Position numbers and translations under genes: made by a program. 64,000 bases of DNA from Candidatus Eiseniibacteriota bacterium (lineage in GTDB: Bacteria; Eisenbacteria; RBG-16-71-46; DASYSL01). Below are positions 6,005 through 40,819 of this stretch, piece by piece. Each line of letters starts with the position of its first letter. Within the stretch, counting starts at the first letter, position 1. The stretch lies in assembly GCA_031431875.1 (NCBI GenBank), contig JANPEF010000153.1, positions 45,891-109,890 of the forward strand, in the 5' to 3' direction. The notes beneath the pieces are model-generated. The model saw nothing but the letters and a program-made list of their open reading frames with translations, searched no databases and was not told the DNA's origin.

Positions 6005-6036
6005 GTTTGCCGGCGTCGATTCAAGGGGAGGACATC

Positions 6037-7677: not shown

Positions 7678-7692
7678 AACGGGGGTCCCGTC

Positions 7693-10954: not shown

Positions 10955-10980
10955 GCGCATCACGACTTGTCGCCGCAACG

Positions 10981-11015: not shown

Positions 11016-11037
11016 GACATCGGGTGATGCGTCGGAA

Positions 11038-11247: not shown

Positions 11248-11319
11248 TTCGTCCTCCTTGCTTCAACCAAACTGCCGGGGCAACGCCGGGGCGGCCCGGC
11301 ACGAAACGTCTGACGAGCC

Positions 11320-11349
11320 AGATTAGCACGCTTTCGACGGACGTGTAAA
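11320..11349 (-). promoter_or_regulatory. sigma70-type promoter of rpmB
   Basis: TTTACA-N18-TAATCT with extended -10 TG. Confidence 0.6.
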
Positions 11350-11370
11350 GGCGCGCAAACCGTTGCCGTT

Positions 11371-25314: not shown

Positions 25315-25509
25315 GACGGGGCTCCGGGCTCGGGAATTCGTACGGTTGATCCTGCGATCTGCCGAAGGTACGGGAGGGCAGTGGGCATTGTGACTCCGTC
25401 CGCCCTCGGGCGTCCGGTTTCGGCTCAAGCTCCTTTGCAACGTGCCGATGACGGATGCGTCGGGGGAATGCGCCCCCGAAAACGGTTGCGATTCAGGGAG
25501 GAAACCGCC

Positions 25510-26652
25510 GTGGTCGTCGTCAGCTACTCGGGCAAGGAAATCAACGCCAAGCTGGTCTATTACGGCACCGGGCTTTCGGGCAAGACGACGAACCTCGAGG
25601 CCATCTACGAAGCCGTCCCCGACAACAGTCGCGGGAAGATGGTGTCGATGAAGACGCAGTCCGACCGCACCCTGTTCTTCGACCTGCTGCCGCTCGACCT
25701 GGGCGAGGTCATGGGGTTCAAGACCCGCTTCCTCCTCTACACGGTTCCGGGCCAGGTCTTCTACAACGCCACGCGCAAGCTGGTGCTCAAGGGTGCCGAT
25801 GCGATCGTGTTCGTCGCCGACTCCGAACGCGGCAAGATGGACGAGAACAAGGAGTCGCTGTCGAACCTCCGCGCCAACCTCGCGGAGTACAAGGTCAACC
25901 TCGACGACCTGCCGTGGGTGCTGCAGTACAACAAGCGCGACCTGCCCGACGTCTACACGGTCGAGGAACTGAATCGCGAGCTCAACCCGAGCAACGTCCC
26001 CTGGGTCGAAGGCGTGGCCACCAAGGGCACGGGCGTCCTCGAGACGTTCCGCCTGGTGAGCCAGATGCTGCTCGAGCGGGTGACCAAGGACCTGCGACGG
26101 TCGCCCTCGACGACCGGCGCGCGCGAGGTGCCACGTCCCGCACCGGCCCAGTCGCCGAGTGCGCCGCAGGCGGCCTCGGCCGGTCCGGTGGCGATGCCGT
26201 CGTCGCCCCCACCGCCGACGTTCCGCGCGACTGCCGCTCCGGTCGCGCCGCAGGCTCCGAGTCCGTTTGCGCCGCAGCCGGTCGCCGCCGCACCATTGTC
26301 GCCGCTGCCTGCCATCTCCATGCCGCAGGTCCCCGGCCTGGTCACCGGATCATCGCCCTTCACTCCGTCCAGCCGGGGAGAGATCGGGACGCACCCGGCC
26401 GCAGACCGTGCCGACCGGAACGCGCCTGCCCCACCGCCGCTGCGCAGCATGCAGAAGGAGGGCCCCGGGCCGGTCATGGACCTCGGGACGAACTTCCAGC
26501 GCAACATCCAGTTGCCCACCGAGGAGCGCCTGGCCCGTCCGGCGGTCGCGAGCGAGCCGCTGGTGGTGCCCATCACGCTCGACGGCTCGGTGCGGGAGAT
26601 CGTCCTGCGCATCGTCATCGAGCAGAAGGAGCGCGTCGACCGCGCCGCTTGA
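25510..26652 (+). CDS. mglA: MglA-like small GTPase with Pro-rich C-terminal extension
   Basis: EINAKLVYYGTGLSGKTTNL, DRTLFFD, TVPGQVFY, QYNKRDLP; GTG 25510 after GGGAGGA. Confidence 0.85.
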   Translation: MVVVSYSGKEINAKLVYYGTGLSGKTTNLEAIYEAVPDNSRGKMVSMKTQSDRTLFFDLLPLDLGEVMGFKTRFLLYTVPGQVFYNATRKLVLKGADAIVFVADSERGKMDENKESLSNLRANLAEYKVNLDDLPWVLQYNKRDLPDVYTVEELNRELNPSNVPWVEGVATKGTGVLETFRLVSQMLLERVTKDLRRSPSTTGAREVPRPAPAQSPSAPQAASAGPVAMPSSPPPPTFRATAAPVAPQAPSPFAPQPVAAAPLSPLPAISMPQVPGLVTGSSPFTPSSRGEIGTHPAADRADRNAPAPPPLRSMQKEGPGPVMDLGTNFQRNIQLPTEERLARPAVASEPLVVPITLDGSVREIVLRIVIEQKERVDRAA

Positions 26653-26731: not shown

Positions 26732-27313
26732 ATGCGTTCGTCCTGCGCCGCCACCCTGTTCGTGCTTCTCCTCGTCGCCACGCCCGGGCATGCCCAGGGC
26801 GGGGCGGGCTTCCCGTCGACGGCGATCCCGTCGAGCGAGTCGTACTCCACGCCTCGGTCGACGAATCTCCTGCCGCGCTCGATCTTCGATCCCTCGCGGC
26901 TGACCATCTCGAACTCGATGGTCTTCGGCTACAGCTCGGGCGGATACGGCTTCAGCCCCGGCTCGGCCGGGCTGTTCACCTCGAGCCTCGGCTACCGCAT
27001 CGCGAACAACGCCGCCCTGCACGTCGACGTCGGCGCGCACATGAACCCCGCGTTCGGCGGCGGCGGCACCGAGAAGGGGATCTTCCTCCAGAGTGCGGCG
27101 TTCGACTGGCGCCCGACGCGCAACTCGCTGCTTCGCGTCGAGTACCGAGACATGCGCTCGCCGCTGCAGGCCGGCTACGGGTACGGCAACGCATACGGCT
27201 ACGGCAACGGCTACGGAACGGGGCTCGGCGGGTGGGGCACGCCTTACGGCGCCAACCTCGGCGCGGGAGCTCCGCTCGGCGGCGGCCTGCCGGGCGATCC
27301 GCTGCGCAACTGA
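26732..27313 (+). CDS. Exported hypothetical protein with beta-strand core and Gly/Tyr-rich tail
   Basis: GGAGG RBS, signal peptide ending GHA-Q, alternating beta pattern, GYGYGNAYGYGNGYG. Confidence 0.7.
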   Translation: MRSSCAATLFVLLLVATPGHAQGGAGFPSTAIPSSESYSTPRSTNLLPRSIFDPSRLTISNSMVFGYSSGGYGFSPGSAGLFTSSLGYRIANNAALHVDVGAHMNPAFGGGGTEKGIFLQSAAFDWRPTRNSLLRVEYRDMRSPLQAGYGYGNAYGYGNGYGTGLGGWGTPYGANLGAGAPLGGGLPGDPLRN

Positions 27314-28179: not shown

Positions 28180-28216
28180 CAAAAGAGGGGAGCCGCGACA
28201 ACCGCGCGGCTCCCCT
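28180..28216 (-). terminator. Intrinsic terminator on the minus strand
   Basis: 12-bp perfect stem AGGGGAGCCGCG/CGCGGCTCCCCT, 7-nt loop, followed by CTTTTGT on minus. Confidence 0.8.
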
Positions 28217-28271
28217 GTTCAGTGTGACCCTTGCCACCCGGATCCTTCCAGGCGCCGTCGTTTCCGTCGGC

Positions 28272-28334
28272 CTAGCGCAACCACCAGAACAGGTCGGGCC
28301 AGGTCCACGCGAGATGATCGAGTTCGTCGAACAT
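28272..28334 (-). CDS. 20-aa Trp-rich peptide MFDELDHLAWTWPDLFWWLR
   Basis: GGAGGG RBS 5 nt upstream of ATG, GC-typical codons, own promoter and terminator; below ORF-track cutoff. Confidence 0.6.
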   Translation of the reverse strand: MFDELDHLAWTWPDLFWWLR

Positions 28335-28389
28335 CGTCGCCCTCCGTGAGACGGAATCGAGCGGAAGCGTTTCTCCCGCTCCACCCTCG

Positions 28390-28417
28390 TCATCGACCGG
28401 GCGGCGGGGGACTTGAG
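28390..28417 (-). promoter_or_regulatory. sigma28 (FliA)-type promoter
   Basis: CTCAAG-N14-GTCGATGA (TCAA-N15), same form as the csrA promoter. Confidence 0.55.
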
Positions 28418-28472
28418 TGCAATCTGCGATTGGCTTCGAAATGATTCGAGGACTGTCTCCGAATGCGTTGTC

Positions 28473-30680
28473 TCAGAGGAACTTGAGGATCACGATCGTG
28501 CGGTCATCGGCCGGTCCGTCGCGGTGCCAGTCGGCGGCGGCGGCGAGCGCCCGGGCGGCAATCCGATCGGCCCGGAGGCCGCGATCGCGAGCGAGGACCT
28601 GGCCCAGGCGTTCGGGGTCGAACGGCGTGTCGCCCCGGAGGGCGTCGGTCAGACCGTCGGTGTAGAACGCGATCAGGCTGCCGCGCTCGAAGGTCCACTC
28701 GATCTCCTCGTAGGTCTCGCCCGAGGAGACGCCGAGGATCAGCCCGCCGTGCTCGACCTCCTCGTGGCGGCCGTCGGGGTGGACGACGATCGGCGGGTTG
28801 AGGCCCGCGTTTGCCCACGTCAGCGTGCGCCGCCGCGCGTCGAGCCGCGCGTAGGCGAGGCAGACGAACTTCTCGGGCTGGTGCAACTGCACCAGTTCCT
28901 CGTTGACGCGGACGAGTGCTGCGCCGGGGGCGAGGTCGTCGTCGACGCGGCTGCGCAGCCCTGCCTGGACGCCGGCGAGCAGCAGTGCCGCCGGCAGACC
29001 CTTGCCGCAGACGTCGGCGATCGCCACGCCGAGCGTGCGCGGGCCGAGCGGGAGGAAGTCGTAGTAGTCGCCGCCGATCTCGCCGGCCGGCACGGTCGCG
29101 CCGGCCAGGTCGACGGTGGGGAGCACCGGTGCGGTGTGCGGCAGCAGGCGCTCCTGGATGCGGCGCGCCAGTTGCACGTCGCGCTCGAGCCCGGCGCGTT
29201 CGACCAGGCGATCGTGGAGCACCGCGTTCTCGACGCGTGCCGACGCCTCGCGCGCGAACGCGGCCACCTGCTCGCGCTCGCCGGCGTCGAACCATGGACC
29301 CGACAGGCGGGGCCCGAGCGCGAGCACGGCGCGGCAGCGATCCTCGGCGAACAGCGGCACCAGCAGCGATGCGCCGTCCTCGCCGAGAGCGAGCTCGCCG
29401 GCCGTGAGCGGCGCGCGCGCCAGCGACAGCCGCTCGATCGCCGCCGCGGGCGGCGGATCGGCGAGGCGGCCGTGGCGCCTCGAGGCCTCGCCGTGCAGCG
29501 TCGCGAAGCGTGCAGCGCCGGCGGGGGAGACGGCGAACACCGCGCAGTGTTCGAGCCCGAGCGCGCGCACCAGCTCACCGGCCGCGTCGTCGAGCACCTG
29601 CGCCAGCGGCGCGAACGTGGCCGCAGCACTCACCGCGCCGGGTGTGCCGGGCTGCCGCGGCCGCTCGAAGCCAAAGCCGGCGCGCGGCCGCCCGCGCGGC
29701 AGCAGCGCGCCGCCGTCGAACACGCGATGGACGACGGTCGCGTAGCCGAAGCCCGCGGGCACGAGCAGAAGCCACAGCCCCGCGAAGTCCTCCCCCGGCC
29801 ACGCGATTGCGGGCGCGACGTTCTTGGCCAGCGTCAGGAGTGCGAGCGGCACGAGCCCGAGCGTGACGCTCCACACGAGTGCGGTGAGACGCGGACGATG
29901 CTGCGCCGCAGCGCGCCGGTACCCGCCAACGAACGTGACGACGGCGGCGAGCACGGCGCCGCAGAGGAACAGCGCGGCGAGCGCTTCGTAAGCGCCGCCC
30001 GCGAGGAAGCGCGCGGCCGGCGCCGGCGCCATCCCGGAGCGCGACGACAGGTCGAGTCCGACGGCGAGGCCGAACAGCACGATGGCGCCGCCGTATCCGA
30101 TCGCGGCGAGGCCGCGGCCCAGGCGTCCGGGTTGACCCTCGGGAAAGCGGGCGAAGAAGTCGACGAGCGCTGCCGGTAACAGCAGCGTGGCGAGCCCGCG
30201 CAAGGCCTCGAGCGCGGGGCCGCCCGGCGGACCGGCGAGCCACGCCGGTGCGACCGGATGGGGGGCGAGCGCCAGCGCGGCCGAGAACGCGAACAGCGCG
30301 AAGGCGAGGACCAGGCGATCGCCGCGCGCCGCCAGGGCAACCGCGCCGACCAGCGCGAATGCGGCGGCGAGCACGAGAGTGACGATGGAACGGGCGCGTT
30401 CACTGGCGGCGGGTGCGGTGGCCGTGAGCGTGACCTCGCGATCACCGATGCGCGCGACGTAGGTCGCACCCGGAACGGCCGGGGGCGGGGCAGCGAGCCG
30501 GTCACCCACGGCGATGTCGGCGCGATCGGCCGCCCCGCCCCGGGTCACGGCCATGACGCGATCGCCGCGCAGGCGCACGCCCCAGCTGCCGCGCGACGGC
30601 AGCTCGAGCGCGACGGCGAGCACAATCAGTCCCGCCACAATGCCGTACCCCCACACGGAGGCCCGGAGGGAACGCGTCAT
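28473..30680 (-). CDS. Membrane-bound PP2C/SpoIIE (RsbU-like) phosphatase with PDZ-like, multi-TM and GAF regions
   Basis: IGGDYYDF, IADVCGKG, YTDGLTD, DDRTIV motifs; about 7-8 TM; AGGAGG RBS. Confidence 0.88.
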   Translation of the reverse strand: MTRSLRASVWGYGIVAGLIVLAVALELPSRGSWGVRLRGDRVMAVTRGGAADRADIAVGDRLAAPPPAVPGATYVARIGDREVTLTATAPAASERARSIVTLVLAAAFALVGAVALAARGDRLVLAFALFAFSAALALAPHPVAPAWLAGPPGGPALEALRGLATLLLPAALVDFFARFPEGQPGRLGRGLAAIGYGGAIVLFGLAVGLDLSSRSGMAPAPAARFLAGGAYEALAALFLCGAVLAAVVTFVGGYRRAAAQHRPRLTALVWSVTLGLVPLALLTLAKNVAPAIAWPGEDFAGLWLLLVPAGFGYATVVHRVFDGGALLPRGRPRAGFGFERPRQPGTPGAVSAAATFAPLAQVLDDAAGELVRALGLEHCAVFAVSPAGAARFATLHGEASRRHGRLADPPPAAAIERLSLARAPLTAGELALGEDGASLLVPLFAEDRCRAVLALGPRLSGPWFDAGEREQVAAFAREASARVENAVLHDRLVERAGLERDVQLARRIQERLLPHTAPVLPTVDLAGATVPAGEIGGDYYDFLPLGPRTLGVAIADVCGKGLPAALLLAGVQAGLRSRVDDDLAPGAALVRVNEELVQLHQPEKFVCLAYARLDARRRTLTWANAGLNPPIVVHPDGRHEEVEHGGLILGVSSGETYEEIEWTFERGSLIAFYTDGLTDALRGDTPFDPERLGQVLARDRGLRADRIAARALAAAADWHRDGPADDRTIVILKFL

Positions 30681-30764
30681 CGTTCCTCCTGACAGGAGCC
30701 CGTGCGGGGGCGGGGATCACCCTGCCGCCTGCGGGCGTGGCTGTCAAGGACGCGGGAACTTCCC

Positions 30765-30793
30765 CTCAAGCCCGCCCCGTGGGCTGCCGATCA
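30765..30793 (+). promoter_or_regulatory. sigma28-type promoter of csrA-flgM
   Basis: CTCAAG-N15-GCCGATCA (TCAA-N16), close to TAAA-N15-GCCGATAA. Confidence 0.65.
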
Positions 30794-30854
30794 CCCGGGC
30801 GAGGGGCGGAAGGGCCTGTGGACCCGATTCCGCCCCCGACCAGGGAGGTCCATC

Positions 30855-31121
30855 ATGTTGGTCCTGACAAGGAAGTTGGGCGAGAACATCCGCATCGGGG
30901 ACGTGATCAAGATCACGGTCCTCGAAGTGCGCTCGGGCCAGGTGAAGCTCGGCATCGACGCGCCGCCGGAAGTGAAGGTGCATCGCGAGGAGATCTATGC
31001 GCGCATCCAGGCCGAAAATCGCCGGGCCGCAGCGACGTCGCCGGAGGCTCTCCGTGACGCCGCCCGGGATCTCCCCTGGTCGGCCGAAGAGCGCGGGCCG
31101 AAAGGACCTTCTCGACCCTGA
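30855..31121 (+). CDS. csrA: Carbon storage regulator CsrA (long, flagellar-associated type)
   Basis: MLVLTRK...IRIGD...[16 protein letters not shown]; C-terminal extension. Confidence 0.95.
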
Positions 31122-31158
31122 CCGCCGCGATCCGGTTCGCGGCCCGGGAAAACGGACC

Positions 31159-31356
31159 ATGAACCAGGACTCCAATCGCTCGCCCCGACTCGCCGTGCTG
31201 TCCCTCGTCGAAGCGATCGGCACGCCCGCCGCAGCCGTCCGTGCGGACCGCGTGCGCGCGGCGCGAGCCCGCGTCGACGGGGGCTACTACGATCGCATCG
31301 ACGTCCGCCGAGCGCTCGTCGCCGCCCTGCTCGACCAGCTGGTCGCATCGTCCTAG
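31159..31356 (+). CDS. flgM: Anti-sigma28 factor FlgM-like protein (65 aa)
   Basis: VRADRVRAARARVDGGYY...RRALVAALL matches the FlgM C-terminal motif; fliA nearby. Confidence 0.65.
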   Translation: MNQDSNRSPRLAVLSLVEAIGTPAAAVRADRVRAARARVDGGYYDRIDVRRALVAALLDQLVASS

Positions 31357-31394
31357 CACCCACCGCACCTGCCGCCCGGTCCGCCGCACCTTTC

Positions 31395-31403
31395 TGCTAG
31401 ACT
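31395..31403 (+). promoter_or_regulatory. Extended -10 promoter of kinase-regulator pair
   Basis: TGCTAGACT 9 nt before ATG 31413; no SD. Confidence 0.45.
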
Positions 31404-31412
31404 GCGCGCGCC

Positions 31413-32642
31413 ATGGGCGCGCCCGCCAGGAATTCCACCCGCTCTCCACGAACTGCCGACACGAACGGGCCAGAGGCCGCGTTCGACGCCGAGTGCAACG
31501 CGCTTGCCGGCCTCGGAGACCTGCTCTCCGACGGCCTCGTCGTGTCCGATGCCGAGGGCAAGGTCCGCTACGCCAATCCCGAAGCCCTGCGCATGCTCGG
31601 CGCCACCGCGACGTGGGTGCGCGCTCGGGTCACGGGCGAGGTGTTGCGCACCGCGGTGCCGGGCGCCGATCCGCTTGCCGACGCGAAGGCGGGGGAGCCG
31701 CAGGTCGAGGAGACGCTGCTGCTCACGAGGGCCGGCAACGAGGTGCCCGCGCGCGTCACGTTGCGGCGGCTCGCCTCGGGCGGCGCGTGCGCGGCGCTCC
31801 GGGACCTGACGCAGGACCAGCGGCTGCAGCGCGAGCTGCGCCTGCGCGAGCGCCTCGCCACCGTCGGCGAGCTGGCCGCCGGCGTCGCGCACGAGATCCG
31901 CAATCCGCTGGCCGGGATCTCGTCGGCGGCGCAGGTGCTGCTGACGCGCTTCGAGCCGCGTGACGATCGCCAGAAGTTCTGCCGCGTGATCATCGAGCAG
32001 GTCGACCGGCTCGATCACACGGTGACCAGCCTGCTCAAGTTCGCGCGGCCGCCCGAGCCACAGTTGCGCCCGACGGTGCTGCCCGACGTGATCGAGCGCG
32101 TGCTCACGCTCGAGGCCGAGCGCCTCGCCGAGGGCAAGGTCGCGGTCGAGCGCCGCTACGCCGCCCGCGTGCCGACGCTCTACCTCGACCCGGGCCTGAT
32201 CGAGCAGGTGCTGCTCAACCTGGTGCAGAACGCGGTCCAGGCCATGCCCGGGGGCGGTTCGCTCACGTTCGAGCTGGGCCTCGCCACGCGACGCACGCGC
32301 GGGGCGGAGCGCTCGCGCGGTCGCCGGACCCTCGACGCCTCGCCGGCGACGGCGGGGGGCGAGGCCGCGCGGATCGGCGGGCCCGACGAGATTCCGGTCG
32401 TGCGGCTGCGGCTGCTCGACACCGGCCTGGGCGTGCCGAAGGAAGTGCTGCCCCGCCTGTTCGATCCGTTCTTCACCACGAAGGCCTCGGGCACCGGGCT
32501 CGGGCTCTCGATTTCGCAGTCCATCATCCAGGAACACGGGGGAGCGATCTCGATCGCCAGCCGCGAGGGACGCGGCACCACCGTCATCATCGAGTTTCCG
32601 CTGGAGAAACGACATGGCCAGAGACGAGAAGACGCTCGCTAG
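31413..32642 (+). CDS. Cytoplasmic PAS histidine kinase (NtrB-like)
   Basis: PAS, AHEIRNPL H-box, NLVQNA, FDPFFTTK..GTGLGL; no TM. Confidence 0.92.
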   Translation: MGAPARNSTRSPRTADTNGPEAAFDAECNALAGLGDLLSDGLVVSDAEGKVRYANPEALRMLGATATWVRARVTGEVLRTAVPGADPLADAKAGEPQVEETLLLTRAGNEVPARVTLRRLASGGACAALRDLTQDQRLQRELRLRERLATVGELAAGVAHEIRNPLAGISSAAQVLLTRFEPRDDRQKFCRVIIEQVDRLDHTVTSLLKFARPPEPQLRPTVLPDVIERVLTLEAERLAEGKVAVERRYAARVPTLYLDPGLIEQVLLNLVQNAVQAMPGGGSLTFELGLATRRTRGAERSRGRRTLDASPATAGGEAARIGGPDEIPVVRLRLLDTGLGVPKEVLPRLFDPFFTTKASGTGLGLSISQSIIQEHGGAISIASREGRGTTVIIEFPLEKRHGQRREDAR

Positions 32643-34122
32643 CACGACGGGCACCATCCTTGTGGTCGAGGACGAGCAGGCACAGCGCGAGACGCTGTGT
32701 GCGTTCCTCGGCGAGGAGTACACGATGCTCGAGGCGGGCAACGGCACGGAGGCGCTCGCGCACGTCAGCGAGAACCCGGTCGACCTGGTGTTCCTCGACC
32801 TGAGGCTCGGGCGCGAGGATGGTCTCGAGATCCTCAAAAAGCTGCGCGCCGAGGCGCCCGGCCTGCCCGTGATCATGCTCACGGCGCACGGCACGCCCGA
32901 GCATGCGTTCACGGCGTACCGCCATGGCGCCGTGCACTTCATGTCGAAGCCATACAAGCTGGATGAACTGAAGGAGCGCGTCCGCTACGAGTTCGAGGCC
33001 GCCGCCTTGCGTCGCGAGAAGGAAAACCTCGAGGGGGTGCGCGCCGAGTTCGCCGGCCAGCCGCTGCTCGGCTCGAGCCCGGAGCTCAAGCGCGTGCTGG
33101 AGCAGATCACCAAGATCGCGCGCCTCTCGACCTCGACCGTGCTGATCCGTGGTGAGACGGGCGCCGGCAAGGAACTCGTCGCGCAGCAGGTGCACGTGCA
33201 GAGTCCGCGTGGCTCGGGCCCGTTCGTCGAGCTCAACTGTTCGGCCGTTCCCGAGAACCTGCTCGAGTCCGAGTTGTTCGGCTTCGAGCGCGGCGCGTTC
33301 ACCGACGCCAAGCGCACCAAGAAGGGCGTCTTCGAGATGGCCGCCGCGGGCACGCTGTTCCTCGACGAGATCGGTGAGATGTCGCTGGGCCTGCAGGCCA
33401 AGCTGCTCAAGGTGCTCGAGTCGAAGACATTCCGCCGGCTCGGCGGCACGGCCGACATCACGGTCGACACGCGCGTCGTCGCGGCCACCAATCGCGACCT
33501 GAAGAAGGAGGTCGAGCTCGGCCGCTTCCGCGAGGACCTCTACTTCCGGCTCCAGGTGATTCCCATCGAAGTGCCACCGTTGCGCGCCCGGGCGAGCGAC
33601 ATCCCGATGTTGTTGCGCCACTTCATCGATCGCTTCTCGCGCGAGGTGGGCCGCATGCCGGCGCGCCTCCATCCCGAGGCCGAGCGCCTGCTCGTCGGCT
33701 ACGCGTGGCCCGGCAATGTGCGCGAGCTGCGCAACGTGATCGAGCGCATCGTGCTGCTCGAGAGTGACGAGGAGATCCGGCCCGAGCACCTGCCGTCCGA
33801 GATTTCGCGGCCGGCGGCGACGGCGAGTGTCGCGGGTGCGCCGGCGGCGACCAGTGCGGTGAGTGCGAGTGCCGGTGGTGGTGGTCCTGGCGGCGGCTCC
33901 GCCGCCGGGACATCGGTGGGTGCGGTGTGGTTCTCGCCGGGCGTCATCATGCCCCTGGCCGAGGTCGAGATGCGGGCGATCCAACACGCGCTGGGCTGCG
34001 AGCGCGGCAACAAGACGCGCGCGGCACAGGCGCTGGGAATCTCGCGCCAGACGCTGCGCACCAAGCTCAAGGAGCACGCCCTCGAAGAGGCGGCCGAGGG
34101 GGTGGACGAGGGCGGCGACTAG
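32614..34122 (+). CDS. sigma54-dependent response regulator (REC-AAA+-Fis HTH)
   Basis: REC, GETGAGKE, GAFTDA, FLDEIGE, WPGNVRELRN, GNKTRAAQALGISR. Confidence 0.95.
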   Translation: MARDEKTLASTTGTILVVEDEQAQRETLCAFLGEEYTMLEAGNGTEALAHVSENPVDLVFLDLRLGREDGLEILKKLRAEAPGLPVIMLTAHGTPEHAFTAYRHGAVHFMSKPYKLDELKERVRYEFEAAALRREKENLEGVRAEFAGQPLLGSSPELKRVLEQITKIARLSTSTVLIRGETGAGKELVAQQVHVQSPRGSGPFVELNCSAVPENLLESELFGFERGAFTDAKRTKKGVFEMAAAGTLFLDEIGEMSLGLQAKLLKVLESKTFRRLGGTADITVDTRVVAATNRDLKKEVELGRFREDLYFRLQVIPIEVPPLRARASDIPMLLRHFIDRFSREVGRMPARLHPEAERLLVGYAWPGNVRELRNVIERIVLLESDEEIRPEHLPSEISRPAATASVAGAPAATSAVSASAGGGGPGGGSAAGTSVGAVWFSPGVIMPLAEVEMRAIQHALGCERGNKTRAAQALGISRQTLRTKLKEHALEEAAEGVDEGGD

Positions 34123-34162
34123 TTCACGGCCGATCGGCCAGCTTGTGTCCATGATGTCACGA

Positions 34163-34192
34163 GGGGCGTCCCGCCGGGAGGCGGGGCGCCCC
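34163..34192 (+). terminator. 13-bp GC-rich hairpin after kinase-regulator pair
   Basis: GGGGCGTCCCGCC-GGGA-GGCGGGGCGCCCC then GAGTCGTTTT; U tract offset. Confidence 0.45.
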
Positions 34193-34319
34193 GAGTCGTT
34201 TTCCCTCCGCACGCCCTCCGGACTGCACTCCATCGCATCGTCCTGCAATCGGTTGCGCCGCCGCGCCGCGGTCGACCGCGACCGCCCCGGCCCGGTTCCG
34301 TTCCGCCTTCGGCGGGGAA

Positions 34320-34335
34320 TGGCACAAAGCGTGCA
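34320..34335 (+). promoter_or_regulatory. sigma54 -24/-12 promoter
   Basis: TGGCAC-AAAGC-GTGCA with GG-N10-GC spacing, upstream of 34389. Confidence 0.75.
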
Positions 34336-34388
34336 CTTTCCCCGGTTGCACGACCACCATCCACAGCGCAGGGAACGCGAGGACACCG

Positions 34389-34757
34389 ATGCCGCACATC
34401 CTGATCGTCGAAGACGAGCACGCCACCGCCTGGGCCCTCGAACAGGGGCTCTCGGACGAGGGCTACTCGATCGCCACCGTCGACAGCGCCGAGAAGGCGC
34501 TGGCTGCGGTGCGCGAGCGGCGTGCCGACCTCGTGATCACGGACCTTCGCCTGCCGCGCATGGACGGAGTCGAGCTGGTGCGCCGCCTGATGGGAAGAAA
34601 GCACGCCGCGCCGGTGATCGTCGTCACCGCATACGGCACGCAGCAGACGCTGCGCGACCTCGAGGATGCGGGGATCCATGCCTGCTTCCCCAAGCCCTTC
34701 CGCATGGAGCAGCTGCGGAAGAGCGTCAAGGCCGCGCTCGACGAGGCCGGCGCGTGA
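34389..34757 (+). CDS. Single-domain response regulator (CheY-like)
   Basis: ILIVEDE, ITDLRLP, TAYG, KPF. Confidence 0.92.
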   Translation: MPHILIVEDEHATAWALEQGLSDEGYSIATVDSAEKALAAVRERRADLVITDLRLPRMDGVELVRRLMGRKHAAPVIVVTAYGTQQTLRDLEDAGIHACFPKPFRMEQLRKSVKAALDEAGA

Positions 34758-34999
34758 GCGGCGAGGATGCCGTTGCGGTCGCCCTCGATGGACTCGAGGG
34801 GGAGGCGCGCCTCGTGCTCGCGCTCCTCTTCATCGAAGGCTTGAACGAGGCCGAAACCGCCGCCGCGCTCGACCGTCCGGTCGCCCACGTTCGTCGGCTC
34901 GCCGGGCTGGCGCAGGGAGCGCTGGCGGCGGCACTCGCCGGTGCGGCCCGCCGGACGGCCGGTCCCACGCTCGCTTCAGGGAGGAAGCATGCGCCGTAA
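34754..34999 (+). CDS. Stand-alone sigma70 region-4-like HTH protein (81 aa)
   Basis: GTGA overlap; gapless alignment by eye to region 4 of the neighbouring FliA. Confidence 0.6.
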   Translation: MSGEDAVAVALDGLEGEARLVLALLFIEGLNEAETAAALDRPVAHVRRLAGLAQGALAAALAGAARRTAGPTLASGRKHAP

Positions 35000-35246
35000 C
35001 GCCGCAACGTCGACCGAGAAGTCGACCGAGAAGTCGACCGAGAAGAAGCCGTTGGCCGCGCGTCTCACCCAGGTGCGTCGCATGGTCGAGCGCGTCGAGG
35101 CGGAGCGCGTCAAGTTCGAGGACGTCGGCCTGACGCGCCTGGCGCAAGAGAAGGCCCGCGAGAAGCGCTACTGGCAGTTCGTCCAGGCCGTGCTCGAGCT
35201 GCAGCCCTGGATGGGCCAGACGCCGAGCCGGCACACGGTGCACTGA
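34989..35246 (+). CDS. Small helical hypothetical protein (85 aa)
   Basis: AGGAGGAAG RBS, GC-typical codons, STEK x3 then charged helix. Confidence 0.6.
   Translation: MRRNAATSTEKSTEKSTEKKPLAARLTQVRRMVERVEAERVKFEDVGLTRLAQEKAREKRYWQFVQAVLELQPWMGQTPSRHTVH
35009..35044 (+). repeat. 12-bp tandem repeat x3 (GTCGACCGAGAA)
   Basis: Three exact in-frame copies encoding STEK. Confidence 0.85.
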
Positions 35247-35523
35247 GCAACACGAGGACGATCGGACCGCATGGACGCGGTCGCACGGTTCCGCAGGGAC
35301 GCGGGACGATCCGGGCCCGGGAGCGTGACTCCCGGGCCCGACCATTTTCTGGCCGCACGACACGGGGACGCGCGATTCATGTTCAGTCGGCCGGGTCGGC
35401 GGCCGACAACCGTCCAGCTCTCTCCCGCCGAAGGCGGGAGAAGCGATTTTGGTCAAGTTCATAACTCCTAGTCACATAAGCCGTTCACGCATTCACTTCA
35501 GATTGCCTCACGGCCGTGCGCCG

Positions 35524-35539
35524 TGGCACGCGCCTTGCG
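35524..35539 (+). promoter_or_regulatory. sigma54 -24/-12 promoter of flhG-fliA operon
   Basis: TGGCACG-CGCC-TTGCG, near-perfect consensus. Confidence 0.85.
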
Positions 35540-35595
35540 TTTTGCCTCCGCGACCGACCCATCCGGGGTCGGGACCACGAAGACGGAGAGCGACC

Positions 35596-36483
35596 ATGGC
35601 CGACCTCAAACTCGTTCCGCCCGCCCGCACCTCGCGGGGCACCGCCCGCAAGGGGGACGCCCGCGAGCACTTCGTGGCGCTGGCTCGTCCGACGGTGCGC
35701 ACGATCGCGGTGACCAGCGGAAAGGGCGGCGTCGGCAAGAGCACGGTCTCGGCGAACCTGGCCGTCGCTCTGGGCGAGCTCGGCGCCCGCGTCATCCTGT
35801 TCGACGGCGATCTCGCCCAGGCGAACCTGGACCTGTTGCTCGGCCTGTCGCCGCGCTGGGACCTGGGGCATGTGCTGCGCGGGGAGAAGACGCTCGACCA
35901 GATCGTGGTCGAGGGACCGCATGGCGTCCGCCTCGTGCCCGCCGCTTCGGGTGACCGCGATCTCGCCGACCTCGACGACTTCCGGCGCGAGGGCCTGTAC
36001 CGCGAACTGTCGCGCCTGTCGGTCGACGCCGACCTCGTGATCATCGACACCGCCTCGGGAGCCTCGCACCTCACCTCGTCGTTCGCCCGTGCGGCGTCCG
36101 AGCTGGTGGTGGTGACGACGACCGAGCCGACGTCGTACTCCGATGCGTACGGCCTCCTCAAGGTGCTCGTCGCCCAGGGCCTCACGGGCACGCCGAACGT
36201 CCTGGTCAATCGCGCGCCGTCGCTCGAGGAAGCCGAGGAGGTTGCACACGACCTCGCCTCGCTGACGCGCCGCTTCCTCGATCGCAACGTGAACTCGCTT
36301 GGCGCCGTGCCCGACGACCCCGCGGTCGGGCAGGCCGTGCGTCGCCGTCGTCCCGTCGTCGAAGCTGCTCCGAACAGTCCGTCCGCCCTCGCCTTCCGCA
36401 CGCTGGCGGGTCGGTTGTGGGCCCGTCCGTCCGATCCGCGTCCGCAGGCGCTCTCCGGCGAGCGCCTGCGCCTGTCCGCCTGA
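35596..36483 (+). CDS. flhG: FlhG/FleN-family MinD-like ATPase
   Basis: SGKGGVGKS, DGDLAQANLDLLLGL, EPTSYSDAYGLLK; directly before fliA. Confidence 0.85.
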   Translation: MADLKLVPPARTSRGTARKGDAREHFVALARPTVRTIAVTSGKGGVGKSTVSANLAVALGELGARVILFDGDLAQANLDLLLGLSPRWDLGHVLRGEKTLDQIVVEGPHGVRLVPAASGDRDLADLDDFRREGLYRELSRLSVDADLVIIDTASGASHLTSSFARAASELVVVTTTEPTSYSDAYGLLKVLVAQGLTGTPNVLVNRAPSLEEAEEVAHDLASLTRRFLDRNVNSLGAVPDDPAVGQAVRRRRPVVEAAPNSPSALAFRTLAGRLWARPSDPRPQALSGERLRLSA

Positions 36484-36503
36484 ACCGTCCGAGGAGATCG
36501 CCC

Positions 36504-37580
36504 ATGCCCCGTCTCTCGTCGACTCCGTCGCGCGCCCCGAAGGGCACGCCCCGCCTCACCCTGGTCAAGGGCGGCCGCGGCAAGCCCGTCCGCTCCGCGG
36601 CACTCCGTCCGGTCAAGGCCGTCGCCCGTACGACGAAGGCGACGACCGTCGCGGCGAAGCCGCCCCAGGCGAAGAAGTCGACGAAGCTCGTGCCGGCAAA
36701 GGCGGCCAGGCTCGTGCCGGCCAAGGCGCCCGTGGCGCGCGTCGCGCCGCACACGGCGATGCTGCGTGCGCCGCTGGCGCTGGTGCCCAGGAAGCCGCTC
36801 AAGGGCGCGGCCGAGATCGCGGCGGCGCGGGCCCGCGCGGCGGCGGCGAATGCGGCCGATCCGCCGGTGCGCGTGGCGCGCGAGAAGCTGCTCGAGCGCT
36901 ACACGCCGCTCATCAAGTACGTCGTCGAGCGCCTGTCGGTCGGGCTGCCCAAGAACGTCGACCACGACGACCTCATGTCGGCCGGCATCCTGGGCCTGCT
37001 CGATGCCTACGACAAGTTCGATGCGTCGAAGGGAACGAAGTTCGAGACCTACGCGGTGTGGCGCATCAAGGGCGCCGTGCTCGACCAGCTCCGCGCGCTC
37101 GACTGGGCGTCACGCTCGATCCGCCGCAAGGCGCGCGAGGTCGAGGCCTCGACGCGCCGGCTCGACCAGCGTCTCGGTCGCGCGGCCTCCGACGAGGAGG
37201 TCGCCAAGGAGGCCAAGATGCCGCTGGCCGACTACCACCGGCTCATGGACCAGGTGCGGGGCGCGGTGCTGCTGTCGCTCGACGAGACGCGCTCGCCCGA
37301 GGAGGGCGACTCGCTCGGCCTGGCCGAGCTCATCGAGGACCCGAACGTGCCGGACGTGCTGGCGCGCATCGAGGAGGAGGAGACGCGTCTCGTCCTGCTC
37401 GACACGCTCAACCGCCTGCCCGAGCAGGAGCGCATTGTGGTCGCGCTCTACTACTACGAGCACATGACCCTGCGCGAGATCGGCGTCACGCTCGGCATCT
37501 CCGAGTCGCGCGTGTCGCAGGTCCACTCACGGGCCGTCGTCCGTCTCAAGAGCCGCGTCCGTCGCGCGCTCGCCGCCTGA
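36504..37580 (+). CDS. fliA: RNA polymerase sigma28 (FliA/WhiG) with long basic N-terminal extension
   Basis: DDLMSAGILGLLDA, FETYAVWRIKGAVLDQLR..DW, GISESRVSQVH; GAGGAG RBS. Confidence 0.92.
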   Translation: MPRLSSTPSRAPKGTPRLTLVKGGRGKPVRSAALRPVKAVARTTKATTVAAKPPQAKKSTKLVPAKAARLVPAKAPVARVAPHTAMLRAPLALVPRKPLKGAAEIAAARARAAAANAADPPVRVAREKLLERYTPLIKYVVERLSVGLPKNVDHDDLMSAGILGLLDAYDKFDASKGTKFETYAVWRIKGAVLDQLRALDWASRSIRRKAREVEASTRRLDQRLGRAASDEEVAKEAKMPLADYHRLMDQVRGAVLLSLDETRSPEEGDSLGLAELIEDPNVPDVLARIEEEETRLVLLDTLNRLPEQERIVVALYYYEHMTLREIGVTLGISESRVSQVHSRAVVRLKSRVRRALAA

Positions 37581-37587
37581 GGATCCC

Positions 37588-37998
37588 GTGACCCTGCCCC
37601 TGCCGAACCCTGACTTCGAGCCCGTGCCCCGGGAGACCGGCGATCCGGCGTTGCTCGCGCTGGCCGGGCGCCTGCGCGCGCGCGGCGACGCCGCGAGCAT
37701 TTCGCTGGCGGACGAGCTCACGGCCGAGGCCCGGCGCCTGGGTGCCGAACGGGACGCCACGCTCCAGCGCATGTTCGAGAGCCTGGCGGTGAACCACGAC
37801 GTCAACAACGCGCTGGTCGGGATCTTCGGCAACGCGCAGCTGCTGGGCCTGGGGCCCGCGGGGCAGATCCCGGGCGTCGCCGACCGGCTCGCCGTGATCA
37901 CGCGCGAGGCGAACCGCATCAAGCAGGCGGCCCTGCGCATCGCGGAGCTCAAGCAGGGCCTGCTCGCGCGGCCGCTCGATGACGGCGGTGCGGCGTGA
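37588..37998 (+). CDS. Stand-alone HisKA-type domain protein without ATPase domain
   Basis: NHDVNNALVGIFGNAQLL H-box followed by second helix and stop. Confidence 0.7.
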   Translation: MTLPLPNPDFEPVPRETGDPALLALAGRLRARGDAASISLADELTAEARRLGAERDATLQRMFESLAVNHDVNNALVGIFGNAQLLGLGPAGQIPGVADRLAVITREANRIKQAALRIAELKQGLLARPLDDGGAA

Positions 37999-39104
37999 GC
38001 CCGCGCGCGAAGGGAACCAGGCCAGGAGCGAAGTCGACCCGTCGCACGCCCGCCGCGGGCGAGGGTGCGGCGGCTCGGCTGGCCGCGCTGGCCGACATCG
38101 TTGCGCTGGTGCGCGAGCGCCCCGACGCGGACGACGCGCTCGGCCGGGCCCTCGATCGCCTCGGCGAGACCGTGGCGTTCGAGAGCGCGACCTTCTTCCT
38201 GCTCGATGACGTGAGTGGCGAGCTGCAGCCGGTCGCCACGCGCGGCGCACACGTCGACCTGATTCCGGAAGTGCGCTTCGACCTGGGCGTCGGACTGTCG
38301 TCGTGGGTGGCGCGCACCGGCCGACCGGTGCTGCTGTCCGACCTGCGGGGCGAGGCGCGGCCCGACGCAGTCGATGCGCCCCGACACGGCTCGTTCGTGT
38401 CGGTGCCGATGGTCGTCAACAGGGTGTCGATCGGCGTGCTCAACGCGGGCAGCCGGGAGCCGGGAGCGTTCAACGAAGCCGATCGCGACCTCCTGGTCGC
38501 CGCCGCCGCCGCGCTCGCCGCGCCGATCGTGGCCCGCCGCGCTGCGCGCGACGCCGACCGCCGGCCGGGCGCCGATCCGGCGACGGGCCTGCTCAACCGG
38601 CTCGCCTTCGAGGAGCGCGTCGCCGAGGCGATCGAGCGCGGCCGTCGCTACGCCGAGCGCTGCGCCATCGTCGTCCTGTCGTTCGACGGCCTGGCCGCCC
38701 TGCGCCGCACGGCGGGGCTGACCGTGGCTGGCGAGGCGCTGGTCGCGATTGCCGGGCTGCTGACGGCCCGGGCGCGGCAGAGTGACCTCGTGGCCCGGCT
38801 GGTCCCCGACGACGCCTTCGCGCTGCTGCTGGCGCACCAGGGCGCCGACGCCGCAGGGCGTGCCGTCGAGCGGCTCGCCGCGACGATCGCACGCCACCCG
38901 TTCGCCGATCTTCGCCGCTGCACGCCGGGCACGGGCGTCGCCCTGTGGCCCGTCGCGACCGGCCCCGGCGCGGATGGATTCGCCTCGGCCGCGACCTGCG
39001 CCCAGGAACTCGTCGCCGCGGCGCTCGCCGCCGCGCGCGTCGACGCCGCGGTGGATGCATCCGCGGATCCCGTGGTGCCGCCCGCCCCCGCGGAGGCCGC
39101 GTGA
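37995..39104 (+). CDS. GAF plus degenerate GGDEF domain protein
   Basis: GAF; DPATGLLNR; RQSD I-site; VPDDA replaces GGDEF. Confidence 0.8.
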   Translation: MSPRAKGTRPGAKSTRRTPAAGEGAAARLAALADIVALVRERPDADDALGRALDRLGETVAFESATFFLLDDVSGELQPVATRGAHVDLIPEVRFDLGVGLSSWVARTGRPVLLSDLRGEARPDAVDAPRHGSFVSVPMVVNRVSIGVLNAGSREPGAFNEADRDLLVAAAAALAAPIVARRAARDADRRPGADPATGLLNRLAFEERVAEAIERGRRYAERCAIVVLSFDGLAALRRTAGLTVAGEALVAIAGLLTARARQSDLVARLVPDDAFALLLAHQGADAAGRAVERLAATIARHPFADLRRCTPGTGVALWPVATGPGADGFASAATCAQELVAAALAAARVDAAVDASADPVVPPAPAEAA

Positions 39105-40819
39105 ACCTGTCGGCCGAGGGTCTGGCGATCCCGGGGCGCATTCTCGTCGTCGACGACGAACCCGCCGTCGCCGAGGTCTTCCGCGACTACCTGACGCTCA
39201 TGGGCGGCCACGAGGTCGAGACACGCTCGTCGGGCGCGCTCGCGCTCGAGGCGTTCGAGGCGTTCGAGCCCGAGGTCGTGCTCACCGACCTCAACCTCGA
39301 TCGCGACATGTCGGGGCTCGACCTGATGCGCCGGCTCAAGGCGATGAACCCGGACGTGCCGGTCATCCTGGTCACCGGGCAGGTGTCGATCGCCTCGGCG
39401 ATTGCCGCACTGCGCGAGGGCGCCTACGACTACATCACGAAGCCGTGCGACCTCGAGGAACTGGGCCAGCTCCTCGGGCGCGCGCTCGCCTCGCGTCGCC
39501 TGACCGAGACCAACCGCAAGCTGATGTCGGAACTGAAGACCGCGAACGAGATCCTGTCGCGTCACGAGTCGGAGCTGCGCGAGCGGATCCACGTCGCGAC
39601 GTGGCGCATGCGCACGCTGTTCGAGCTGTCGAAGGACATCGCCCGCGACCTGGGGATCGAGTTCCGCTCGCGCGTCATCTCCGAGAAGGCCCGCCAGATC
39701 ACCGGTGCGGCGAGCTCGGCGTTGTTCATCGCCGGCGAGGAGGACGGCATCTTCCGGGCCCGCGCCGTGTCGGGCTTCGAGGGACCCGGCGGCGGGCCCG
39801 AGGGCCTCGTCTTCCGTTCCGAAGAGGGCCTCAACGGCGTCGTCGCCGCGAGCCAGACGCCGATCCGGCGCGGCGGTCGCGTGCACGCCGAGGGGCTGGG
39901 CCTGCCCGTGCCCGCCGGCGAGCCGTGCGAGGGCGTGCTCGTCGTCCCGCTGGTGGCCGACGCGCGCGTCGTGGGCACGCTCATGGTGATGGGGAAGGCC
40001 GGCGGCTTCACCCAGGACGACGAGGACTTCCTCGCCCTGTTCGCCTCGTCGGCGGCCATCGCGCTCACCAACTCGATGCTGTTCGAGCAGACGCTCGAGC
40101 TCGATCGCCTGAAGTCGGACTTCGTCGCCGTCGTCTCGCACGAGCTGCGCACACCGCTCGCGGTGGTGCTCGGCAACCTCGAGCTGCTGGGCGACGAGCG
40201 GTTCTGGACGCTCAACCCGCAGCAGGGGCAGTTCCTCAAGAGCGCCACGACGAACTCGCACCGCCTGCTGCACCTGATCAACGACATCCTCGACTTCTCG
40301 AAGCTCGAGAACTCGAGCCTGCCGATGACCCGCTCGCCGAACGAGCTGTCCGAGGTCATCAGGCAGACGGCGGAGAACCTGGCCCGCCTGTTCGAGGAGC
40401 GCGAGCTCAACCTCAAGCTCGACCTCGCGGCCGACCTGCCGCTGGCCGAGATCGACGAGCAGCGCATCGCGCAGGTTCTCACCAACCTGATCTCCAACGC
40501 GATCAAGTTCTCGCCCGCGGGCGCCCCGGTCGAGGTCACCGTGCGGCACGAGGACGGGCAAGCCGTCGTACGCGTGAGCGATCACGGCGAGGGCATCCGC
40601 CGCGAAGACATGCCGCGCCTGTTCAAGAAGTTCTCGCAGCTCGACTCGCGCTCGACCCGGAAAGTGGGCGGCACGGGGCTCGGGCTGGCCATCTGCAAGG
40701 GCATCGTCGAGGCGCACGGCGGCCGCATCTGGGCCGAGAGCGAGCCCAACGAGGGCAGCACGTTCATCTTCACCCTGCCCCTGGCCGCCGACGCGGCCGA
40801 CGCGGCGCAGGCGGCCTAG
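39101..40819 (+). CDS. Hybrid histidine kinase REC-GAF-HisKA-HATPase
   Basis: ILVVDDE...LTDL; SHELRTPL; NLISNAIKFS; GGTGLGLAI; GSTFIFTLP. Confidence 0.93.
   Translation: MNLSAEGLAIPGRILVVDDEPAVAEVFRDYLTLMGGHEVETRSSGALALEAFEAFEPEVVLTDLNLDRDMSGLDLMRRLKAMNPDVPVILVTGQVSIASAIAALREGAYDYITKPCDLEELGQLLGRALASRRLTETNRKLMSELKTANEILSRHESELRERIHVATWRMRTLFELSKDIARDLGIEFRSRVISEKARQITGAASSALFIAGEEDGIFRARAVSGFEGPGGGPEGLVFRSEEGLNGVVAASQTPIRRGGRVHAEGLGLPVPAGEPCEGVLVVPLVADARVVGTLMVMGKAGGFTQDDEDFLALFASSAAIALTNSMLFEQTLELDRLKSDFVAVVSHELRTPLAVVLGNLELLGDERFWTLNPQQGQFLKSATTNSHRLLHLINDILDFSKLENSSLPMTRSPNELSEVIRQTAENLARLFEERELNLKLDLAADLPLAEIDEQRIAQVLTNLISNAIKFSPAGAPVEVTVRHEDGQAVVRVSDHGEGIRREDMPRLFKKFSQLDSRSTRKVGGTGLGLAICKGIVEAHGGRIWAESEPNEGSTFIFTLPLAADAADAAQAA

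Follow-up and report, generated by a model that had tools for sequence, protein, structure and literature searches.

Gene content and conservation of the island

The stretch of DNA analysed here (hereafter the window) comprises 64 kb from a Candidatus Eiseniibacteriota bacterium, an uncultivated soil organism (GenBank assembly GCA_031431875.1, contig JANPEF010000153.1, positions 45,891 to 109,890 of the forward strand). As its G+C content is ~71%, genes were called by codon-position G+C, and they were named with Pfam and NCBIfam. This report concerns a cluster of flagellar-type regulatory genes at 28.4–40.8 kb, referred to below as the island, in which the following genes were recognised:

28473..30680, minus strand: SpoIIE-type PP2C phosphatase with a polytopic membrane region and a GAF domain (Pfam SpoIIE 138.7 bits, GAF)
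30855..31121, plus strand: csrA, long FliW-type form with C-terminal extension (TIGR00202, 94.5 bits against a cutoff of 70.1)
31159..31356, plus strand: FlgM-like putative anti-sigma28 factor, 65 aa (sub-threshold PF04316)
31413..32642, plus strand: cytoplasmic PAS-HisKA-HATPase histidine kinase (HK; Pfam; H-box HEIRNPL; no membrane segment)
32614..34122, plus strand: NtrC-type REC-AAA+-HTH sigma54 activator (Sigma54_activat 227 bits, REC, HTH_8)
34389..34757, plus strand: REC, single-domain response regulator (Pfam)
34754..34999, plus strand: sigma70 region-4-only protein, 81 aa (sigma4-like; PF04545, 24.7 bits against a cutoff of 24.1, E = 1.7e-5)
34989..35246, plus strand: orf85, charged, 85 aa (high G+C at third codon positions; position conserved)
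35596..36483, plus strand: FlhG/FleN-type MinD-family ATPase (FleN 5j1j, 200 bits)
36504..37580, plus strand: FliA/WhiG-family sigma28 factor (TIGR02479, 253.5 bits against a cutoff of 189.6)
37588..37998, plus strand: DHp-only (HisKA-like) protein, 136 aa, with a conserved His (HisKA E = 0.011)
38109..39104, plus strand: GAF and degenerate GGDEF protein (earliest possible start 37995)
39101..40819, plus strand: REC-GAF-HisKA-HATPase hybrid kinase (REC/HK; Pfam)

A first-pass annotation of the window, made from the sequence alone, had described a PAS kinase with a sigma54 activator followed by two gene sets, REC/sigma4/orf and flhG-fliA-HisKA-degenerate GGDEF-hybrid kinase, all of which were recovered at the same places with Pfam and NCBIfam profiles.

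Relatives were retrieved by scanning a FliA alignment against one genome per species, which yielded 124, of which the best 80 were used, and gene order in the related loci was mapped by tblastn. The sigma factor homologues carry the labels Candidatus Eisenbacteria or Eiseniibacteriota, and nearly all of the best 80 loci come from Eisenbacteria metagenome-assembled genomes (MAGs); two closed chromosomes, OY970342.1 and OY970178.1, are of the island type. The island, whose conservation had been left to be checked by the first-pass annotation, proved to keep its gene order in 77 of these 80 loci (FliA identity 51–92%), namely MglA-like, orf193, trpA, [SpoIIE], csrA, [flgM-like], HK, sigma54 activator, REC, [sigma4-like, orf85], flhG, fliA, DHp, GGDEF, REC/HK, epimerase, Wzi, valS. 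In a neighbour-joining tree of FliA, the island-type loci formed one clade, with the canonical flagellar type and the types represented by loci L076 and L084 falling outside it. A small ORF occupies the position of the sigma4-like protein throughout the clade, and orf85 gave no family match in Pfam and NCBIfam scans. The SpoIIE-type phosphatase has roughly eight or more predicted membrane segments in its N-terminal ~300 aa, judging by hydrophobic windows. Orthologues of the DHp-only protein also gave weak HisKA matches; the protein was considered as an RsiG-like anti-sigma factor and rejected as such, being DHp-like and without the ExxxSxxRxxxQxxxD motif.

FliA falls within the FliA/WhiG family (PRK06986, 236.9 bits against 201; Pfam regions r2, r3 and r4), an alignment of 16 diverse sequences has 108 invariant columns, and the closest solved relatives are the sigma chains of 6pfv (216 bits) and 6pfj (212 bits), which we take to be WhiG-RsiG complexes, followed by FliA of 6pmi (187 bits). 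In a sub-clade that includes the window, FliA bears a basic, Lys/Ala/Pro-rich, histone-H1-like N-terminal extension of ~85–125 aa (window 36504-36880), and one homologue (P0095) has a precomputed Pfam HC2 match. Other island-type FliA proteins are 274–279 aa long with shorter extensions, and those of flagellated relatives 251–269 aa without any. The FlhG-like ATPase belongs with FlhG/FleN: its Walker A motif, SGKGGVGKST, fits the deviant KGGxGK[ST] pattern, and it matched FleN (5j1j) ahead of FlhG (4rz2, 147 bits) and MinD (113 bits). CsrA is a TIGR00202 member whose closest solved relative is Geobacillus CsrA in the CsrA-FliW complex (5dmb).

The 65-aa ORF downstream of csrA is tentatively assigned as an FlgM-like anti-sigma28 factor because of three features: a recurrent sub-threshold match to PF04316, the sole weak match to recur among its orthologues (6 of 20, best E = 0.0084); conservation confined to a C-terminal sigma-binding-like block, VRxxRVxxARxRIxxGYYDRxDVRDRL; and its genomic position, the orthologue in L076 lying beside flagellin, fliW and flgN.

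Three of the regulators, namely the FlgM-like protein, FlhG and FliA, share a short N-terminal motif, [PA]xL[RK][LV][VI][PRK]GG (for example LRLVP, PALRVVPGG and PRLTLVKGG; window 31159-31230, 35596-35640 and 36504-36880, respectively; the same regions in L002-L086; L076:3096-3311). In FlhG it aligns with the position at which flagellated relatives have the tail of their DQAxxLRxLRVV helix, and its recurrence hints at a common docking or degradation signal.

Promoter motifs and their predicted transcripts

Five promoter-type motifs and the transcripts associated with two of them were located in and beside the island:

34320..34334, plus strand: sigma54 promoter motif TGGCACAAAGCGTGC (TGGCAC-N5-GTGC), upstream of REC
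35524..35538, plus strand: second sigma54 promoter motif TGGCACGCGCCTTGC (TGGCAC-N5-TTGC), upstream of the flhG-like gene
30765..30791, plus strand: sigma28-type promoter motif of csrA and the flgM-like gene
28392..28417, minus strand: sigma28-type promoter motif of a micropeptide transcript, in the trpA/SpoIIE spacer
28272..28334, minus strand: hydrophobic micropeptide ORF MFDELDHLAWTWPDLFWWLR, 20 codons, with a GGAGGG Shine-Dalgarno sequence upstream
28181..28215, minus strand: intrinsic terminator of the micropeptide transcript, a GC-rich hairpin with U-tract
25424..25449, plus strand: sigma28-type promoter motif CTCAAG-N14-GCCGAT, 60 nt 5' of the MglA-type GTPase gene
25510..26652, plus strand: MglA-family small GTPase with a Pro/Ala-rich C-terminal extension of ~190 aa (Myxococcus xanthus MglA, E = 1e-69)

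Sigma54 promoters had been called upstream of REC and of flhG in the first-pass annotation, and motifs of the -24/-12 type (TGGCAC-N5-TTGC) are present in both places. The pattern taken alone is not above chance (5 window matches versus 2.75 expected), and the sites are credible because they are positionally conserved rather than because they are enriched: the REC site recurs in 72 of 78 loci, 15–59 nt before REC, and the flhG site occurs in 9 loci only, all of the window's sub-clade.

Sigma28 promoters combine a -35 element TAAAG or TCAAG with a spacer of ~15 nt and the -10 element GCCGATAA. The window contains three matches to CTCAAG-N14/15-GYCGAT, where 0.02 would be expected; the first-pass annotation had reported those of csrA-flgM and of the minus-strand transcript, which it took for a small RNA, and had not listed the third at 25424. 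A strict motif (TCAAG-N13-16-[GC]CCGA[TA]) was scanned over 1.16 Mb of non-redundant island-type DNA. Three orthologous genes account for 57 of the 62 matches: 29 precede csrA, 22 the micropeptide gene and 6 the MglA-like gene. A looser sigma28-type motif precedes csrA in 29 of the 51 loci having upstream DNA, and the MglA-like orthologue has a strict motif 190–277 nt upstream in 5 of 8 other loci. Both placement and conservation mark these motifs as candidate FliA promoters, and all three targets found are non-flagellar.

It could be argued that such motifs arise by chance in GC-rich DNA and that the genes are merely unrelated two-component and sigma modules lying side by side, which would be in keeping with the unenriched sigma54 pattern. 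However, this explanation, to which we attach next to no probability, is already contradicted by the conservation data, since the sigma28 motif far exceeds its expectation and both motifs hold their positions in dozens of diverged loci; the locus is, moreover, orthologous to flagellar operons (see below).

The supposed small RNA carries instead a Shine-Dalgarno sequence, a 20-codon ORF and a terminator, and is better read as a predicted mRNA, with a sigma28-type promoter, for a conserved hydrophobic micropeptide. The 207-nt transcript is predicted to fold with z = -4.3. An ORF of 17–20 aa recurs in 26 island-type sequences (consensus V(E/D)IG...LLDLLWWIRR), and its amino acids are kept while the third, synonymous codon positions and the stop codons vary, which is the signature of a translated gene. 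The micropeptide scan returned no Pfam match, and the whole window gave no Rfam match. A trp attenuator leader, suggested by tandem Trp codons beside trpA, was rejected because the ORF converges on trpA with no gene downstream; it is further ruled out by conservation of the flanking DLLWWIRR residues and by the ORF lying away from trpA in L003 and L099.

The micropeptide gene is directly downstream of the SpoIIE-type phosphatase gene, and this pairing is kept in a distant lineage. In L099, which belongs to a distant flagellated lineage, the order flhA-flhF-x-fliA (364 aa)-x-fliM-fliN-peptidase is followed by the micropeptide locus, in which a sigma28 motif and then an 18-aa micropeptide, MGLFIGFWTVVDIFEWMR, lie beside a PDZ-GAF-SpoIIE gene (L099:19100-19560, minus strand); the SpoIIE-micropeptide-sigma28 linkage therefore predates the island. 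Our favoured guess is that the micropeptide modulates the adjacent membrane-bound SpoIIE-type phosphatase. No SpoIIE-type homologue was detectable between trpA and csrA in L021, L053, L062-L065, L067, L073 and others, and none of those eight loci is among the 26 with a micropeptide ORF; the two genes may have been gained and lost together.

The third candidate target is a conserved neighbour of the island. Its product is an MglA-family GTPase, matching M. xanthus and T. thermophilus MglA over residues 3–193 (E ~1e-69). Between this gene and trpA lies orf193 (window 26732-27313, plus strand, 193 aa), which holds its position clade-wide, has no Pfam match, and may share a transcript with the MglA-like gene and act as its partner. 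In eight loci, the 5' untranslated region of the MglA-like gene contains a conserved structured leader of ~150 nt:

MglA-like structured leaders: L021:1500-1675, L053:1252-1427, L062:1505-1680, L063:2062-2237, L064:1717-1892, L065:2066-2241, L067:1446-1621, L073:1557-1732

A 12-bp closing helix, GCGACCCCAUCC...GGGUGGGGUCGC, surrounds an almost invariant hairpin, CCGUGGAG-AAAGGGCGGCAAGGGG-CUCCAUGG, and compensatory changes occur in 12 of 45 predicted pairs. This leader, which gave no Rfam match, may be an undescribed cis-regulatory RNA; it is not present in the short MglA-like leader of the window (25450-25509).

Flagellar ancestry and the probable loss of flagella

One of the 80 loci, L087, differs from the island order in that its fliA ends a run of fliL-fliM-fliN-fliP-fliQ-fliR-flhB-flhA-flhF, followed by GGDEF, REC/HK and valS. 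FlhA of this locus, used as a query, retrieved FlhA proteins bearing the label Candidatus Eisenbacteria, and nine proteins among its 120 best relatives were looked up for context. Eight Eisenbacteria-like FlhA contexts showed the canonical arrangement fliK-flgD-flgE-fliL-M-N-O-P-Q-R-flhB-flhA-flhF-flhG-x-fliA-x-HDOD-GAF/GGDEF-[REC/HK]-Wzi, and orthologous flagellar loci (L087, L088, L090, L093, L094, L095 and L100) read fliK...flhA-flhF-flhG-fliA...GAF-GGDEF-REC/HK followed by Wzi or valS. Since flhG-fliA...GGDEF-REC/HK-Wzi/valS occurs in both kinds of genome, with the hybrid kinase syntenic throughout, it is the same locus in both, and the segment csrA...orf85 of island-type genomes replaces at least ~14 kb of structural genes of the canonical ones. 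The left half of the island has a counterpart in L076 (OZ245046.1, a closed 6.45-Mb chromosome), where the order is flgN-fliW-csrA-flagellin-like-FlgM-like-HK-activator-...-fliA-...-GGDEF-REC/HK-valS, indicating that csrA, the small protein, HK and activator derive from a late flagellar cluster. Taken together, the sister-lineage loci and L076 present the island as a remnant of flagellar clusters after their structural genes went, and a flagellar ancestry appears well supported by synteny. The proposal of the first-pass annotation, a flagellar-type sigma54-to-sigma28 hierarchy without structural genes, gains support from the single island clade and from the canonical operon at the orthologous locus.

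In L076 itself (461-15081) the flagellin-like ORF is weak and atypical (Flagellin_N, 31 bits) and fliA adjoins HK and activator rather than flhA-flhF-flhG, so that this lineage may represent an independent, less advanced flagellar loss. A metagenome scan with a FliK fragment of a flagellated relative found no relatives, and one with an FlgD alignment found only FlgD at up to 43% identity, presumably from other phyla.

Pfam scans of all called genes found no flagellar, motor, flhF, fliW or che gene in the window, and tblastn with 21 flagellar proteins from related lineages gave zero matches in the window plus 83 island-type loci (~1.2 Mb, E <= 1e-3), in line with what the first-pass annotation had stated for the window. 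A functional flagellar hierarchy was not found in this material, there being no structural, motor or chemotaxis gene among the targets. The island is probably a flagellar hierarchy reduced to its regulatory skeleton, which was kept in one large Eisenbacteria clade after the structural genes at this locus were deleted.

A skeleton of this kind might be no more than a decaying relic, its regulators non-functional and its promoter-like motifs without consequence. The degenerate GGDEF domain, the short and divergent FlgM-like protein, the fast-evolving sigma4-like ORF and orf85, and the loss of SpoIIE or FlhG from some lineages are what decay would leave behind. Against it, the genes have kept their reading frames and their order in 77 species-level genomes despite FliA divergence, FliA retains its many invariant columns, promoter motifs stay at fixed positions while their flanks diverge, and the micropeptide has the pattern of purifying selection; we regard the relic explanation as very improbable.

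A more serious competitor is that the organism is flagellated, that its structural genes have moved elsewhere and that the island is a relocated class II/III cluster controlling flagellar and chemotaxis genes. The distribution of FlhA speaks against it. The database has at least 120 island-type FliA clusters, these being all that were listed as relatives, whereas no FlhA of island type is among the 120 best FlhA relatives. None of the assemblies bearing FlhA is among those bearing the island. Among the 120 best FlhA relatives listed, 49 are Eisenbacteria-like; eight of the nine looked up fall within Eisenbacteria-like clusters (5 of 7 sub-groups), all canonical with their own flhG-fliA, and the ninth, P0208 of L099, comes from the more distant lineage and has fliA just downstream of flhA-flhF. 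The remaining matches cluster with other phyla or are unlabelled (up to 54% identity). Every sampled FlhA locus thus has a sigma factor of its own. In addition, neither fliW, flgN nor flagellin accompanies csrA in island-type loci, and, as noted above, the sigma28 targets found are non-flagellar.

Derived changes shared by the island clade point in the same direction. The GGDEF domain of the window reads RQSD-LVARL-VPDDAF: the I-site RxxD is kept and the catalytic motif degenerate, as the first-pass annotation had noticed, so that it does not qualify as a diguanylate cyclase. This degeneracy is found across the island clade only, flagellated relatives keeping RxxD-x5-GG(D/E)EF. The latter also have an HDOD-HD gene between fliA and GAF-GGDEF (L088:17237-18139, L090:17874-18725, L093:16583-17434, L094:18339-19214, L095:17485-18336, L100:15022-15873), of which no homologue was seen in any island-type locus; its loss alongside GGDEF catalytic decay suggests that a cyclic di-GMP (c-di-GMP) module was dismantled. 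The N-terminal DQAxxLR helix of FlhG, which activates the FlhF GTPase, was found in flagellated L088 and L090; the FlhG proteins of the window and of all island-type loci lack it and carry LRLVP and DHPxxWxRP motifs in its place. Many FliA proteins of the clade, including that of the window, also have the basic N-terminal extension. On balance, we think it rather likely that the island clade is without flagella, and that relocation, while deserving consideration, is an unlikely account.

Several observations nevertheless weigh against the loss of flagella and the regulatory skeleton inferred here. Flagellar genes could lie elsewhere in island-clade genomes, as their absence was read from the window and the 83 loci rather than from whole genomes. 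FlhG, FliA, the FlgM-like protein and FliW-type CsrA are all kept and well conserved, FliA being ~60% identical to that of flagellated relatives, as relocation would predict. L076, with fliA uncoupled from flhA-flhF, demonstrates that the two are separable in this phylum. Its FlhA is not among the 120 best listed, though its FliW is in the database, so that either the L076 lineage has also lost flhA or the argument from FlhA counts may be less sensitive than assumed. DQAxxLR is not evident in flagellated L093-L095, which makes its loss a weak marker. For FlgM, position and sigma28 promoter fit the first-pass assignment, but the PF04316 match is sub-threshold (14.2 bits against a cutoff of 25, E = 0.051), and neither the protein nor its profile matched a solved structure. 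The activator loop reads GAFTDA, versus the canonical sigma54-contacting GAFTGA of AAA+ activators, and rpoN is not in the 64-kb window. Most of the leaders considered for CsrA-binding GGA hairpins, a candidate we rejected, contain 1–4 GGA per ~110 nt versus ~2 expected (an estimate), and these fall in the stem rather than the loop; such composition-level frequency and placement leave CsrA control of these mRNAs unsupported. Finally, a preprint reports an Eisenbacteria MAG with a moderate content of chemotaxis genes, citing "nutrient-attracted motility".

Literature on flagella or motility in Eisenbacteria held nothing decisive, and the phylum goes unmentioned in the supplement of a soil flagellar-motility survey. 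L076 FliW, used as a query for FliW of the island clade, returned 186 candidates (best non-self identity 48%), which were uninformative.

Housekeeping genes fill the remainder of the window: the end of the dcw cluster, recG, glycosyltransferases, trpA, valS, uvrB, nadC, birA, tatC, coaX, groEL and dapD. Three large minus-strand ORFs of 522, 895 and 770 aa (7740-9308, 11371-14058 and 14094-16406) look strongly coding but matched no Pfam domain at E <= 1e-4.

Proposed circuit and comparison with known systems

From the gene identities, the conserved motif positions and the orthology of the locus with sister flagellar operons, we infer the following interactions among proteins and promoters. The cytoplasmic PAS kinase would phosphorylate the NtrC-type activator, which together with sigma54 would open the REC/sigma4-like/orf85 promoter and, in the window's sub-clade, the flhG promoter as well; the two promoters would together drive flhG-fliA-DHp-degenerate GGDEF-REC/HK. 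FliA would then transcribe at least three units, namely csrA with the flgM-like gene, the micropeptide gene and the MglA-type GTPase gene. The FlgM-like protein would sequester FliA and so probably dampen its own sigma28-type promoter, a negative feedback known from Legionella, Salmonella and Bacillus. FleN is an antiactivator of FleQ, and the FleN-like ATPase probably restrains the activator in the way that FleN restrains FleQ. CsrA probably acts post-transcriptionally on mRNAs.

We also put forward, as a speculative extension that we hold to be doubtful, that the orphaned cascade has been rewired into a cell polarity and envelope switch, or a broader lifestyle switch, in this Eisenbacteria clade. 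FliA would in that case drive an MglA-type polarity GTPase and a previously undescribed micropeptide that modulates the adjacent SpoIIE-type phosphatase, and inhibition by the FlgM-like protein would have to be lifted without a secretion apparatus. FlgM binds FliA and is exported through the flagellar type III system; candidate substitutes for export are the sigma-region-4 protein acting as a decoy, the L[RK][LV]VPGG motif on FlgM, FlhG and FliA, and c-di-GMP sensing by the degenerate GGDEF domain.

If the island is indeed a regulatory skeleton, it shows, in an uncultivated phylum, that a developmental switch of several tiers can persist after the machine that it assembled has gone. Both states would be on view at one locus, the "before" in canonical operons of sister lineages and the "after" in 77 species-level genomes with regulators only. 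Regulatory exaptation would then become readable: FliA, FleN, the kinase-activator pair, CsrA and the FlgM-like protein are kept, the GGDEF catalytic site and the FlhF-activating motif degenerate, and csrA-flgM, the micropeptide and the MglA GTPase remain as targets. The question raised is how an anti-sigma factor normally removed by secretion is controlled after loss of the secretion apparatus. The list of unannotated features also grows by two conserved entries, a micropeptide family and a 5' untranslated RNA element.

The proposed circuit resembles the four-tier polar-flagellum hierarchy of Pseudomonas and Vibrio (FleQ/FlrA, FleSR/FlrBC, FleN/FlhG, FliA, FlgM) and the FlgSR-RpoN-FliA-FlgM scheme of Campylobacter and Helicobacter. 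As in these polar flagellates, a PAS kinase and NtrC-type activator would lead to sigma54 promoters, these to flhG-fliA, and FliA to sigma28 promoters including that of the flgM-like gene; the FlhG-like protein, too, is closest to FleN. Unlike them, the island has no flagellar structural gene, flhF or che under its promoters (window plus 83 loci), no FleQ-type master regulator was seen, and FlhG is without DQAxxLR.

In Streptomyces, WhiG-RsiG-c-di-GMP places a sigma28-family factor in a non-flagellar programme. The sigma chains of 6pfv and 6pfj are the best solved matches of the window's FliA, and a GGDEF-type domain bearing an intact I-site is encoded just downstream of it, whereas the island has no RsiG-like protein, and its FlgM-like protein, FlhG and CsrA have no counterpart in the WhiG system.

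Bacillus subtilis combines sigmaD-FlgM with a FliW-CsrA-Hag partner switch (PMC13443453). The island shares the long-form CsrA, related to that of Geobacillus, and the linkage of csrA to a (here flgM-like) gene behind a sigma28-type promoter motif, and L076 still has flgN-fliW-csrA-flagellin. It differs in having neither fliW nor flagellin, and no evidence for CsrA sites was found in the leaders examined.

The first-pass annotation had named WhiG and the sigma28 factor of Chlamydia as analogues, yet a nearer one exists in non-flagellated Legionella retaining FliA, FlgM, FleN, FleS/R or FleQ, and WhiG is the more distant of the two. L. longbeachae keeps FliA, FleN and FleS/FleR, and L. israelensis FleQ, FliA, FleN and FlgM; in L. 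oakridgensis, which keeps FliA and FlgM, flgM is sigma28-dependent and FlgM still represses FliA, apparently being degraded rather than exported (PMC5655016). The phenomenon thus has a precedent. If flagella were lost here too, both cases would share a sigma54-type two-component pair, FleN/FlhG, FliA and FlgM (here a FlgM-like protein) that outlast the structural genes, an old and clade-wide loss, an flgM or flgM-like gene under sigma28, and a need for FlgM control without flagellar export. The two differ in that absence of flagella was established by experiment and genome in Legionella and is deduced for the island clade; in that the latter belongs to an FCB-group candidate phylum rather than the Gammaproteobacteria; in the collapse of the regulators, with csrA, into one 12-kb island; and in sigma28 targets comprising a micropeptide and an MglA GTPase. 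What is new here is the phylum, the fuller set of regulators in a single island, the ancestral and derived states at an orthologous locus, and this pair of candidate sigma28 targets.

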